This document shows, piece after piece, positions 1 through 2,256 of a DNA stretch of 25,375 nt. A model generated the notes under the pieces. That model saw nothing but the letters and a program-made list of their open reading frames with translations, did not search any database and was not told the origin of the DNA. The stretch comes from Candidatus Sericytochromatia bacterium (lineage in GTDB: Bacteria; Cyanobacteriota; Sericytochromatia; UBA7694), in assembly GCA_050248915.1 (NCBI GenBank), contig JBFWRL010000077.1, forward strand, positions 1-25,375, read 5' to 3'. The translations under genes were made by a program, and so were the position numbers. How positions within the stretch are numbered: the first letter of the stretch is position 1; the number at the start of each line of letters is the position of its first letter.

Positions 1-131
1 AGACCATCGGTAATTCTCAGCCGCGTGGTTTTATAACCGGTGCGCGAAGTGCCTTCCATATTGCCATTAATAATACCGATCCAGGAGTTGACTGCAACGA
101 GGGAATTGACACCAACTTTATCGAGAGCCAT
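1..131 (-). CDS. Flagellar hook/rod-family protein, N-terminal fragment (gene continues beyond window start); paralog of the next gene
   Basis: Reverse-strand ATG at 131..129 translates to MALDKVGVNSLVAVNSWIGIINGNMEGTSRTGYKTTRLRITDG. This closely parallels the N-terminus of the 275..2191 product (MSMTQVGVRSLLAVNSWIGLINSNLQGASRVGYKTVRPHLTDG) and fits the flagellar basal-body rod/hook N-terminal motif (I-x-N-N-L-x-x-x-x-x-G-Y/F-K). Confidence 0.5.
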   Translation of the reverse strand, partial: MALDKVGVNSLVAVNSWIGIINGNMEGTSRTGYKTTRLRITDG

Positions 132-274
132 GTGAGTTGCCTTTCAGTGCTGTAAATGGGTGCGGAAAGACCCTAGATTCATTTTAGCGGGTCAGCTTGG
201 TTTTGCGTTCACGACTTATCAGGAATTTAATCACAAAAAAAACTATTTTGCAATTTTTAATTTATTTTTAACAA

Positions 275-2191
275 TCACCTAAAGGTGCTGTTGATATCGT
301 CAATCATCGCATTTTGAGCAGAAATGATCTTCGAAATCGAGGCAAATACTTTTTGAGCCAATGCCAACATCGGCACATATTCAGTCAAAGAGGCTGTTGA
401 GGATTCCAGTGAGGCTTGCACAATCCGGGTGCGCTGCCGATCTTGCCAGCGCTCCAGAATTTCGGGGGAAGAGATATTGGTCTGGCTCATACTGACCACG
501 TCTCCTGTGCGCTGCACGTTATAGGGCTGATGAAAATCGGCCCTGAGATTGTGGACCTGTAAAAAATTGCCCGCATTGCGCAAGGAAAGATAACCATTGA
601 TTTCATCTGCTGCACCGGCCATATTAAAAGAGACTGTCGCACCATTGACGTTCAACGTCAGAATTTGGTTTTCATCCATCTTGACCACCATGCGGCGCAG
701 GGGATCCGCAGCCACAGGGGGCGCACCTGCAGCGGTGACCCCCAGCGTGGCGACCTGCAAAGTGAGTGCCGTGCCATTGGCATCGGGGGGCCGCGATTGA
801 AGCGTGACAGCACCTGTGCCCGTATTGTAAATCAGGGCATAACCAGAAGAGTTAATGCTGTGGGCATCGGTTTGGCCAAAGCCAAAGACGATCACCCCTG
901 CCGAGGCCTTAAATTCAACCTCCACGTCAAAAATCGCCGTTTGTTGAGATTCGCCAATCACCATCACCCCCGAGCCACCGGCTGTGGCGTCGGATTGTAA
1001 AAATCCATTGGGTTTGTCGTGAAAATAGGTGGCGGGGTGAACGGGCCCCAAACTGAGCGATTGCAAAGTGGCACTTAAATCAACAGGCGCCAGATCTAAG
1101 AGGGTCCGAACACGGCTGTTGTCAATATCAATATGGCTGCTCAAGACCGTTTCCAAATTGGTATCACTGTCGCGGTCATTCGTTGGCAAGCTGGATTGGT
1201 TCTGATCAAATTGGAAAAATTTGCGCAGGGCCAAGCCATTGGCTCCCCCCAAGACAACTGGGGTATGAACGATCCCGCCGACGATGTTTTGCTCATTGTG
1301 AATAAAGAGTTGATCCGAACCCGTATCAAAATAAGCCGAAACCCGTCCCCCCACCGTGCCCCCATAGGCATTGATGGCATTGACAATATCCGCAATTGAA
1401 TTGGCATTGGCATTAAAATCGGTGCCCACCCCCAAAGGGTTAAAGGCATTAAAATTGAAAAAACCGTTGTCGCCAAAGTCGATTGAAAAATCGCTTGAAT
1501 AATTGGGGGGTGGAACGGCGATAAAAGGCACCCATTCGGGGTCATTGACCACAGGCAATTGCAGCGGGTCGTCGTAGATCAAACTCAGGCCATCGGTGGT
1601 TTCAGTCATATCGTTACGCAGCCGCAGGGGCAGTCCACCATCAATCGAAAAGACCGTGGAACCAAATTGGCTCATGCGCAAGCCATCGCGATTGGCCACA
1701 TCCACCACCAACAGAGATTTATCACCATAACGCAGCAATTCTTCCGAATTGCCGTTGGGATCAAAGGTATCTGAGCGATCGCGACGGTCGCGGCGAACAA
1801 AATCCTGACCACTCGAAATCACTTTGAGGCCTGCACTGTTCACCAAATACCCGTTGCCGTCCCAGTGAAACTCACCGTCTCGGGTCAGATAATAGCGACC
1901 CGCCGCATCCGCCACCACAAAAAAACCCTCGCCCTGCAAGGCAAAATGGCTGCTTTGATCGGAGTTGATAATCGAGCCCTGGGCCCACTCCAGCGATGTG
2001 GCTTGCACATTGAGGGTGGGCAAAGGGGTATAAATTTCGTTTTGGGTGTAGAGATAACCGGCCCCGTCGGTGAGATGGGGCCTGACCGTTTTATAACCCA
2101 CACGCGAAGCACCCTGAAGATTGGAGTTGATCAAACCAATCCAGGAATTCACGGCCAGAAGTGAGCGAACCCCGACCTGGGTCATCGACAT
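275..2191 (-). CDS. flgE: Flagellar hook protein FlgE-like (638 aa)
   Basis: The N-terminus carries the flg_bb_rod motif (LINSNLQGASRVGYKTVRP). The internal GEGFFVV...YYLTRDGEFHWDGNGYLVNSAGLKV block matches the FlgE/FlgG DGFF motif. The C-terminal helix ...LTEYVPMLALAQKVFASISKIISAQNAMIDDI parallels the FlgE/FlgG C-terminus (MI-AQRAYE-NSK-I-T-D-ML). Its length favours a hook protein over a rod protein. Confidence 0.6.
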   Translation of the reverse strand: MSMTQVGVRSLLAVNSWIGLINSNLQGASRVGYKTVRPHLTDGAGYLYTQNEIYTPLPTLNVQATSLEWAQGSIINSDQSSHFALQGEGFFVVADAAGRYYLTRDGEFHWDGNGYLVNSAGLKVISSGQDFVRRDRRDRSDTFDPNGNSEELLRYGDKSLLVVDVANRDGLRMSQFGSTVFSIDGGLPLRLRNDMTETTDGLSLIYDDPLQLPVVNDPEWVPFIAVPPPNYSSDFSIDFGDNGFFNFNAFNPLGVGTDFNANANSIADIVNAINAYGGTVGGRVSAYFDTGSDQLFIHNEQNIVGGIVHTPVVLGGANGLALRKFFQFDQNQSSLPTNDRDSDTNLETVLSSHIDIDNSRVRTLLDLAPVDLSATLQSLSLGPVHPATYFHDKPNGFLQSDATAGGSGVMVIGESQQTAIFDVEVEFKASAGVIVFGFGQTDAHSINSSGYALIYNTGTGAVTLQSRPPDANGTALTLQVATLGVTAAGAPPVAADPLRRMVVKMDENQILTLNVNGATVSFNMAGAADEINGYLSLRNAGNFLQVHNLRADFHQPYNVQRTGDVVSMSQTNISSPEILERWQDRQRTRIVQASLESSTASLTEYVPMLALAQKVFASISKIISAQNAMIDDINSTFR

Positions 2192-2227
2192 AGAAGACCT
2201 GCCTGCAGAAAATGGGATTTAAGTTTC

Positions 2228-2256
2228 ATTGTAAGCAGCCACAGGAAAAATTGCAA
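2228..2256 (-). promoter_or_regulatory. Sigma70-like promoter upstream of the flgE-like gene: -35 TTGCAA (2256..2251), 17-nt spacer, -10 TACAAT (2233..2228)
   Basis: On the minus strand the sequence reads TTGCAAtttttcctgtggctgctTACAAT, about 35 nt upstream of the ATG at 2191. Confidence 0.4.

Follow-up and report, generated by a model that had tools for sequence, protein, structure and literature searches.

The two tandem genes at the start of the window (the whole 25,375-nucleotide stretch of DNA that was analysed) probably encode hook-type axial subunits, functional equivalents of FlgE, of a real, sequence-divergent flagellum in a Sericytochromatia/Blackallbacteria bacterium. We put the probability of this reading at about 0.6. 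Both genes belong to the same family and are arranged head-to-tail on the minus strand. The pair and its surroundings contain the following features.

1..131, minus strand: copy 2, the 5' end of the downstream paralog (43 codons, 131..3), with its ATG at 131 and the rest beyond the window edge
132..274, minus strand: 143-bp spacer between the copies, with a sigma-70-like promoter candidate for copy 2 and a conserved leader
253..248 and 233..225, minus strand: promoter candidate of copy 2, with -35 TTGCAA at 253..248, a 17-nt spacer and an extended -10 TGa-TTAAAT at 233..225
275..2191, minus strand: copy 1, complete ORF of 638 aa, FlgE/F/G-superfamily axial (hook-like) protein, with its stop codon at 275..277
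278..511, minus strand: C-terminal part of copy 1, residues 561-638, with the C-terminal D1 strands and the C-terminal D0 helix (LESSTASLTEYVPMLALAQKVF...DDINSTFR)
512..1036, minus strand: outer beta-sandwich, residues ~386-560, of the concanavalin-A-like (ConA-like) lectin/CBM/glucanase fold
1037..1576, minus strand: middle outer domain, residues ~206-385, of alpha/beta type, with a flagellin 'IN'-like motif SIADIVNAINAY; boundaries approximate
1577..2191, minus strand: axial core, residues 1-205, with the N-terminal D0 helix, the Dc segment and the N-terminal part of the D1 beta domain
2228..2256, minus strand: promoter-like site of copy 1, TTGCAA-N17-TACAAT, matching 9 of 12 consensus positions
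2262..2264: stop codon of the upstream methyltransferase gene, 5 nt upstream of the TTGCAA-N17-TACAAT site

The preliminary description of this DNA reported tandem, diverged FlgE-like paralogs outside any flagellar operon, with a complete copy of 638 aa next to rlmB and metabolic genes. The pair is indeed a FlgE/F/G-family pair, no further flagellar gene is found across the whole 25-kb window, and the neighbors are a SpoU/RlmB-type methyltransferase, a biotinyl-domain protein, DeoC, RpiB and an MVP-shoulder/Band7 protein. The N-termini of the two copies had been called near-identical; they share only 27 of 43 residues (63%). Of the 43 residues of the copy 2 fragment, 38 are the same in the downstream 638-aa gene of locus L008.

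Copy 1 matches PF22692, the FlgE/F/G D1 domain, in Pfam with an E-value of 1.6e-11, and a beta-rich D1 of the FlgE/F/G type is present. It passes the TIGR03506 FlgEFG_subfam model narrowly (72.3 bits against a cut-off of 70.25, residues 4-131). At the N-terminus, PF00460 (Flg_bb_rod) gives no match on the long protein at E <= 0.01; however, the TIGR03506 and PDB profile alignments start at residue 4-10. The D0 motif is altered (SLLAVNSWIGLINSNLQGASRVGYK versus the canonical SGL.A....L.VI.NNIAN..T.GYK). At the C-terminus, PF06429 (Flg_bbr_C) gives no match on the long protein (E 0.01), family profile positions 589-635 align to FlgG 214-260 as a weak second domain (i-E 0.3), and a short paralog reaches 20.3 bits with PF06429, below the cut-off of 23. 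The best FlgE equivalog model, NF004242, scores 64.7 bits against a cut-off of 365, and all FlgE models match only the N-terminal ~120 residues, so that copy 1 is not a FlgE equivalog by profile. Nor is it a FlgG equivalog, with 60 bits for TIGR02488 against a cut-off of 252.75 and a length of 638 aa of which ~355 aa are inserted. The family profile matches FlgG and FlgE chains among the PDB sequences at both termini, the best match being FlgG. Against the family HMM, E. coli FlgG scores 41 bits, FlgE 32 bits and FlgK -7.4 bits, and FlgK is absent from the Pfam, NCBIfam and PDB matches of copy 1. An assignment to FlgK or FlgG had been named beforehand as evidence against a hook protein; the first has no match, and for the second the profile searches cannot separate FlgE from FlgG, which is slightly favored. 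The FlgE label is therefore given because of size, outer domains and Dc-segment length, and not by profile assignment. An exhaustive profile search recovers long, intermediate and short forms of the family; there are 62 full-length homologs, and every named one comes from Sericytochromatia/Blackallbacteria MAGs.

The AF2 model of copy 1 has a pLDDT of 80.7 and a helix at residues 605-637, and in the family alignment the invariant columns concentrate in the C-terminal residues 561-638. The basic functional hook consists of D0, D1 and D2 (PMC5069557). Copy 1 has no D2-like match, and the IN-type module and the ConA-like domain stand there instead. Family HMM positions 212-365 match repeated modules of giant Flagellin_N/Flagellin_C proteins with domain E-values down to 1e-30. 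Residues ~386-560 form a beta-sandwich jelly-roll with 8-15% sequence identity to ConA-like relatives, and no Pfam family is detected in them. This domain resembles ligand-binding regions of adhesins such as SraP and Aap, and it may bind glycans. PF07196 is recorded faintly for a 787-aa partner gene and is also listed for P0025. The central region had been described as highly divergent. This is true in comparison with canonical FlgE, because residues 126-638 have no Pfam match, but not within the family, where the region is conserved. Omega between copy 1 and its L008 ortholog is 0.05 for the whole gene, 0.02 for the core and 0.07-0.10 for the outer domains. By this comparison of coding sequences copy 1 is under strong purifying selection, with D0 and D1 as the most constrained segments.

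The tandem pair is kept in all Sericytochromatia loci recovered, down to ~40% identity, where it always adjoins the F-type ATP synthase operon and never lies in a flagellar cluster. At the copy 2 position, the collinear relatives have a complete gene of 632-645 aa. Beyond the window start, three of them (L001, L008 and L006) show the remainder of copy 2, followed by the ATP synthase operon, instead of the flgBCDEFG cluster that the preliminary description had considered possible there. The upstream and downstream copies of the window's lineage are monophyletic in 83 of 100 NJ bootstraps, versus 14 of 100 for the upstream copy as an ortholog of the ~780-aa upstream genes of other lineages. The two copies thus seem to have been re-created in this lineage by a fresh duplication or gene conversion. 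In distant lineages a conserved 444-505-aa gene lies directly upstream of the pair; it is without a Pfam match and has no counterpart in the window's lineage.

Each copy is preceded by a sigma-70-like site. The TTGCAA-N17-TACAAT motif proposed earlier as the promoter of copy 1 is present and is the single match in the whole window (2256..2228, minus strand). Statistically it does no better than chance, because the number of sigma-70-like sites in 1..7200 equals expectation (5 observed versus 4.2 +/- 1.7). The site is identical in four near-identical relatives, and L006 keeps only ATTGC of the -35 and has an altered -10. What speaks for a promoter is solely position and this conservation among near-identical relatives, which is weak evidence. 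TACAAT occurs 6 times in the window (5.7 +/- 2.7 expected). The occurrences noted before near rpiB and the merR-family gene do exist, at 5424..5429 (minus strand) and 20172..20177 (plus strand), 2-3 nt from the positions first given. For copy 2, both hexamers of the candidate and the block CGCTAAAATGA..CTAGGGT..TGAAAGGCAAC.CACATG are conserved when the region is aligned to L008, L001, L010 and L006, which is more distant, and the site may function as a promoter. A structured leader RNA upstream of copy 2 was considered and rejected: nothing in 1..2400 matches Rfam at E <= 1, and folding is no better than in shuffles (z = +0.49). Upstream of either copy, the coding strand has no match with up to 3 mismatches to a sigma-54 (TGGCAC-N5-TTGCA) or sigma-28 (TAAA-N15-GCCGATAA) site, in agreement with the earlier description. 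The CCTGATAA just after the -10 of copy 2 was rejected by eye as a sigma-28 -10, having no TAAA at the right spacing. Hook genes in enterics and Bacillus are sigma-70/sigma-A dependent. For this reason, and with a motif no better than chance, a putative sigma-70-type promoter says nothing on the place of the pair in a flagellar hierarchy.

In the mechanism that we propose, the retained D0 helices and beta-rich D1 would allow flagellar type III export and stacking into an 11-protofilament tube. The IN-type module and the ConA-like lectin/CBM fold would be inserted outward in D1, replacing a recognizable canonical D2, and would make up the outside of a thick hook. The rod would consist of the ~286-aa paralogs, which lack outer domains and have a longer, FlgG-like Dc segment. 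The two long paralogs probably both have a structural role, either co-polymerized or forming proximal and distal hook segments, and each would be expressed from its own sigma-70-like promoter. The 'modified hooks' among the earlier suggestions (alternative or modified hooks) come close to this divergent, heavily decorated hook. Known hooks are homopolymers of one FlgE. The purified hook of C. jejuni holds the product of only one of its two hook genes (PMC5069557). Because of these two facts, the use of both paralogs in one structure is speculative, and we only infer it.

It is possible, if unlikely, that here too one long paralog builds the hook and the other is a spare, a condition-specific alternative or a non-assembled relic. 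Like the C. jejuni case, the 55-65% difference between the outer domains of the two copies speaks for this, as does the promoter-like region and leader that each copy appears to have of its own, so that separate regulation would be possible. However, every Sericytochromatia locus recovered has both copies next to each other, copy 1 is strongly constrained, and the apparent re-creation of the copies in the window's lineage speaks for a need for two subunits. A tentative extension of the main reading, to which we give little weight, is a two-component hook or hook-derived extracellular polymer with obligatorily paired subunits. The lectin-like domain and the giant flagellin/FlgL-like module would then form a continuous glycan-binding or self-bracing layer over the hook and the junction, encoded beside the ATP synthase operon ever since the class arose. 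If true, the architecture would be that of a heteromeric, decorated hook, undescribed in any model flagellum.

The hook, rather than another axial position, is suggested by size and by the Dc segment. Rod proteins have ~250 aa; copy 1 has 638 aa, of which ~355 aa are outer domains, and we count this for a hook over a rod. The YK/FK and FF motifs are 53-58 residues apart in the long forms (55 in copy 1) and 57-64 residues (nearly all 61-64) apart in the short forms, compared with 48 in FlgE and 66 in FlgG of E. coli. The Dc segment is thus shorter than that of FlgG, on a relative measure for which copy 1 has an intermediate value. It is doubtful that the pair occupies another axial position, as an enlarged distal rod or 'collar' or as a hook-filament adaptor replacing FlgK, with the true hook encoded by another gene. 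Outer domains of ~355 aa would be hard to accommodate in a bushing or the cell wall, and genomes with the long forms also encode shorter, FlgG-like paralogs whose Dc segments are longer. The beta-rich D1 of FlgE/F/G type and the absence of a FlgK match in Pfam, NCBIfam, PDB and the E. coli comparison also speak against it.

Filament genes accompany the family in related genomes. MAG_89 (GCA_018780035.1), which holds a 91%-identical ortholog, has at least three tandem canonical flagellin genes. Flagellins of 484 aa and 836 aa occur in Blackallbacteria CG17, in addition to a flagellin with FlaG. In L003, L004 and L020 a flagellin gene lies ~8-9 kb away from the pair. In one Sericytochromatia genome, a giant Flagellin_N/C-type protein (ACO1RX_10610) and a hook pair are encoded on one contig. 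A more distant closed genome of 5.18 Mb has a 456-aa family member and fliC-flaG-fliD-fliS-fliT; the 566-aa gene upstream of this family member is unrelated to the family. Short paralogs of 283-302 aa occur in the same MAGs and share the lineage motifs TRDGEFHW and LE.SNASLT..VPELSLAQK with the long forms. In L027, three short copies stand in tandem, identical at their termini but variable in the middle; they look more like a filament/antigen-type family than rod proteins. No genes for export gate, C-ring, MS-ring, motor, FlgD, FliK, FlgK or basal body are seen in the ~20-kb loci examined around individual proteins. A FHIPEP match in L036 near a flagellin cluster is a fusion of an HTH with the FlhA cytoplasmic (C-terminal) domain and not an export gate. 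In the related genomes the flagellin, FlaG, short-paralog and giant flagellin/FlgL-like genes each stand as orphans among housekeeping genes. Isolation from other flagellar genes is therefore the genome style of the lineage, whose flagellar genes would be scattered singly or as paralog tandems, so that the location of the pair would carry no functional message.

The preliminary idea of a use outside the flagellar hierarchy is not supported in this setting. That the FlgE-like fold was co-opted into an adhesive, lectin-bearing surface polymer independent of motility is very improbable: it would fit genes outside any flagellar cluster, the resemblance to SraP and Aap, termini below the Flg_bb_rod and Flg_bbr_C thresholds, the lack of export-apparatus genes in the loci examined and the variable middles in L027, but D0/D1-type proteins are to our knowledge exported and polymerized only via the flagellar type III system, canonical flagellins, FlaG, FliD, FliS and FliT occur equally scattered in the same or related genomes, the middle module is common to flagellin-family proteins, and D0 and D1 are the most constrained segments.

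Sericytochromatia are uncultured non-photosynthetic sisters of the photosynthetic cyanobacteria and are used to reason on the ancestral cyanobacterial cell. Our literature search on flagella or motility in Sericytochromatia, Blackallbacteria or Tanganyikabacteria found nothing relevant. These bacteria encode a coherent, strongly diverged set of axial proteins with short rod-like and long hook-like forms. The set escapes the standard Pfam models of the terminal domains and receives inconsistent labels from annotation pipelines (FlgG, FlgE, hypothetical), which affects motility inferences from MAGs. The known range of hook outer domains would be widened by a ConA-like lectin fold and a giant-flagellin module, and, as two adjacent paralogs are retained across the class, one can ask whether a heteromeric hook is possible. 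The result also calls for caution, as 'not in a flagellar operon' does not mean 'not flagellar' where gene order is scattered.

Canonical FlgE of Salmonella and E. coli (PDB entries 6jzt, 3a69 and 1wlg) differs from the proteins described here in several respects. The best equivalog score is 64.7 against the required 365, PF00460 and PF06429 are undetected, and an IN-type module and a ConA-like domain are present with no D2-like match. FlgE is also a single gene there, whereas here two tandem paralogs are not beside flgD/flgF. The large epsilonproteobacterial hooks (the 865-aa FlgE of C. jejuni, PDB entry 5jxl; FlgE2 of H. pylori, PDB entry 5npy) have D3 and D4 domains that the outer domains here do not match. 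Their two hook genes are unlinked and only one builds the hook, while here the genes are adjacent, of similar size and paired class-wide. The distal rod protein FlgG (PDB entries 6jf2, 5wrh and 9yee) has ~260 aa, no outer domains and a Dc segment of 66 residues in E. coli versus 55 here; TIGR02488 gives 60 bits against 252.75, and separate FlgG-like paralogs of 283-302 aa exist in genomes carrying the long forms. The outer fold is like that of ConA-like modules (CBM66, the L-type lectins Emp46p/VIP36/ERGIC-53, PL7, GH16 and DUF1080), at 8-15% identity and with no Pfam family here; we know of no report of this fold as a hook-protein domain. In the giant flagellins (Flagellin_N ... Flagellin_IN ... 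Flagellin_C), the repeated modules of the hypervariable region are homologous to residues ~206-365 of copy 1 with E-values of 1e-15 to 1e-30. There, the modules are combined with a flagellin-type helical D0/D1, whereas here the core is of the FlgE/F/G type.

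The two tandem genes at the start of the window most likely, with a probability of about 0.6, encode hook-type subunits, and the Sericytochromatia flagellum they belong to would be real but divergent in sequence. A lectin-like domain and a flagellin-type module would decorate these subunits, whose genes form an obligatory tandem pair amid generally dispersed flagellar genes. The relevant features of the window are the following.

Features of the window
2191 down to 275, minus strand: copy 1, complete 638-aa ORF (ORF call)
ATG at 131, running off the window start, minus strand: copy 2, 43 codons visible (ORF call)
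143 bp between the two ORFs, minus strand: spacer of copy 1 and copy 2
132-215, minus strand: leader upstream of copy 2, with conserved blocks CGCTAAAATGA, CTAGGGT and TGAAAGGCAAC, kept as far as a relative whose protein identity is only 65%
3541-5070, minus strand: DeoC-family aldolase ORF, N-terminal extension of ~240-290 aa without Pfam match
5549-6958, minus strand: 469-aa protein with major-vault-protein (MVP) shoulder and SPFH/Band 7 domains, kept in close relatives (loci L001, L002)
12584-16627, minus strand: 1347-aa protein, GT4 glycosyltransferase domain only mid-protein (residues 665-940), large flanks without assignment

The visible part of copy 2 matches copy 1 at 27 of 43 positions (63%); against the downstream gene in the nearest relative found, 38 of 43 are identical. 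The N-termini of the two copies are thus similar, and not near-identical as the preliminary description had it. Genes for a SpoU/RlmB-type methyltransferase, a biotinyl-domain protein, DeoC aldolase, RpiB and the MVP-shoulder/Band7 protein lie 5' of copy 1 on the same strand. Elsewhere the 25-kb window encodes a beta-lactamase-family protein, an AI-2E-family transporter, a glycosyltransferase, a sugar dehydrogenase, a cyclase, a MerR regulator and a prolyl oligopeptidase, and no flagellar genes are found there. This gene content agrees with the setting described earlier, rlmB and metabolic neighbours without other flagellar genes. DeoC relatives are annotated as 465-466 aa or only 224-227 aa, so gene starts are inconsistently called. 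Three conserved genes without any Pfam domain (7133-10468) lie farther upstream of the 469-aa gene, and a UDP-glucose/GDP-mannose dehydrogenase gene comes after the 1347-aa gene.

Membership of copy 1 in the FlgE/F/G clade is well supported by several profile comparisons. Pfam detects only PF22692, the D1 domain of FlgE/F/G proteins (residues 84-125, E 1.6e-11); neither terminal-helix family, PF00460 or PF06429, is matched at E 0.01. In NCBIfam, copy 1 narrowly passes TIGR03506 (FlgEFG subfamily; 72.3 bits, cut-off 70.25), falls far short of the cut-offs of all FlgE, FlgF and FlgG equivalog models, and gives no signal for FlgK. A profile built from 63 family members and run against solved protein chains matches FlgG and FlgE at the N-terminus (~7-124) and weakly at the C-terminus (589-635), with FlgG slightly ahead (E 1.2e-11 versus 4.8e-10 for Campylobacter FlgE). 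E. coli proteins score 41 bits (FlgG), 32 (FlgE), about 0 (FlgF) and negative (FlgK) against the family HMM. Since no equivalog is near cut-off and FlgG scores slightly above FlgE, the FlgE label is not derivable from profile searches alone. All 62 strong homologs carry PF22692 and no other detected flagellar core domain; PF07196 is additionally present in one.

The AlphaFold2 model of copy 1, computed from the family alignment, is confident (mean pLDDT 80.7, pTM 0.72) except in the terminal helices and the Dc linker, where uncertainty is to be expected when a monomer is modelled. Residues ~206-365 form a third region with a flagellin-'IN'-like motif, and an exhaustive profile search finds them homologous to repeated modules in giant proteins ended by Flagellin_N and Flagellin_C (domain E down to 1e-30). 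From the model and this homology, the predicted architecture is a D0-Dc-D1 core of the FlgE/F/G type carrying two inserted domains that face outward. The module occurs once in the hook-like protein and in several tandem copies in giant flagellin/FlgL-like proteins of 1027-1756 aa (P0245, P0246, P0261, P0263, P0274, P0294). P0245 and a hook pair share one 587-kb contig.

Named homologs all come from Candidatus Sericytochromatia or Blackallbacteria MAGs, one case being labelled Melainabacteria. Scanning by motif, with each GTDB species represented by one genome, gives 21 loci, nearly all from MAGs with these two titles and one titled 'Cyanobacteria bacterium UBA7694'. The window is collinear with Blackallbacteria MAG mt_P12 (87-88% DNA identity). 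Wherever contigs are long enough, two long genes stand in tandem, directly followed by an F-type ATP synthase operon (b, b', delta, alpha, gamma, beta, epsilon and a conserved ~175-aa gene). By collinearity the window does not start inside a flgBCDEFG cluster, which the preliminary description would have counted as a refutation; past its start come the remainder of copy 2 and, after it, atp genes. The pair is ~640 + 640 aa in the window's lineage, preceded by rpiB-deoC-biotinyl-rlmB exactly as in the window, and ~780 + 640 aa in deeper lineages, where a canonical flagellin gene lies ~8-9 kb away across the operon. The operon is co-directional with the pair in most lineages and divergent in L034, whose pair is of the short type (315 + 302 aa). 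We treat the adjacency as ancient synteny and assign no meaning to it.

Features in loci of relatives
L001 14290-20644; L003 12152-18451; L004 12051-18367; L006 14238-20554; L034 3378-9827: pair and ATP synthase operon, beyond window position 1 by collinearity
L003 5911-7428; L004 6167-7501; also L012, L016, L019, L020: conserved 444-505-aa gene without Pfam domain, directly upstream of the pair in deeper lineages; the window's lineage lacks it there
L027 9992-13029: three tandem short paralogs, 304, 317 and 326 aa
L036 17370-18740, minus strand: 456-aa protein, HTH_17 and C-terminal cytoplasmic half of FlhA (FHIPEP profile positions 312-656)
L038 10001-13522: P0245 (ACO1RX_10610), 1173-aa flagellin/FlgL-like protein with the hook proteins' middle module, orphan gene

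Comparison with its orthologs shows strong purifying selection on copy 1 (omega ~0.05), with 0.02-0.05 in the core versus 0.07-0.10 in the outer domains. Core identity between the tandem copies is 57-81%, and that of their outer domains is 35-47%. In an NJ tree with bootstrapping the long forms cluster (78/100). Within the window's lineage the upstream and downstream copies are mutual closest relatives (83/100), and their orthology to the 780-aa and 640-aa classes is rejected (14/100). The tree thus indicates that this lineage re-created the pair through duplication or gene conversion, hinting that two subunits may be needed. C. jejuni has two hook genes, of which one provides the hook (PMC5069557), and by this analogy only one of the two paralogs may be used in the hook.

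The same assemblies carry 283-302-aa paralogs without outer domains, which share lineage-specific motifs (N-terminal SL.A.D.WI..I.AN, TRDGEFHW and C-terminal LE.SNASLT..VPELSLAQK...DD...LIR); Blackallbacteria CG17 has two, each an orphan amid housekeeping genes. Their Dc spacer is 57-64 residues (nearly all 61-64) versus 53-58 in the long forms, a difference parallel to that between E. coli FlgG (66) and FlgE (48), so the short forms fit a rod role and the long forms a hook role. That the window copies occupy a different axial position is unlikely. In L027, the N- and C-termini of the short paralogs are virtually identical and the middles variable, a pattern recalling multi-flagellin loci more than rod genes; the tandem adjoins genes for an ECF sigma factor and for a zinc-finger anti-sigma-like protein.

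Canonical flagellins are present and as scattered as the diverged axial family members. In MAG_89, which holds the 91%-identical ortholog, at least three lie in tandem. Blackallbacteria CG17 encodes one flagellin together with FlaG, plus a 484-aa and 836-aa pair, and fliC-flaG-fliD-fliS-fliT occurs in a closed 5.18-Mb genome that also encodes a 456-aa family member. A non-flagellar polymer is quite improbable. No export-gate, ring or motor genes were seen within 20-kb slices around particular proteins, slices that are no evidence of genome-wide absence. The only FHIPEP match, near the fliC cluster of the closed genome, was rejected as an export gate, being an HTH fused to the FlhA cytoplasmic domain; this HTH_17-FlhA fusion could be a regulator sensing export-chaperone complexes.

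The TTGCAA-N17-TACAAT motif proposed as the copy 1 promoter is present (2256..2228) but conserved only among near-identical relatives, and the sigma-70-like sites of the region number 5 versus 4.2 +/- 1.7 expected by chance. TACAAT does recur, with 6 occurrences in the window versus 5.7 expected, and is not enriched. The spacer 5' of copy 2 is better promoter evidence: TTGCAA-N17-TTAAAT with a TG extension and the leader block is kept out to Blackallbacteria CG17 (65% identical at protein level). The leader blocks match no Rfam family and show no significant fold; they could serve in protein binding or in the control of translation. Neither a sigma-54 nor a sigma-28 consensus occurs in the scanned upstream regions. 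Hook genes of enterics and Bacillus are sigma-70/sigma-A dependent, so a sigma70-type promoter has no bearing on expression outside the flagellar hierarchy, for which it had been taken as a sign.
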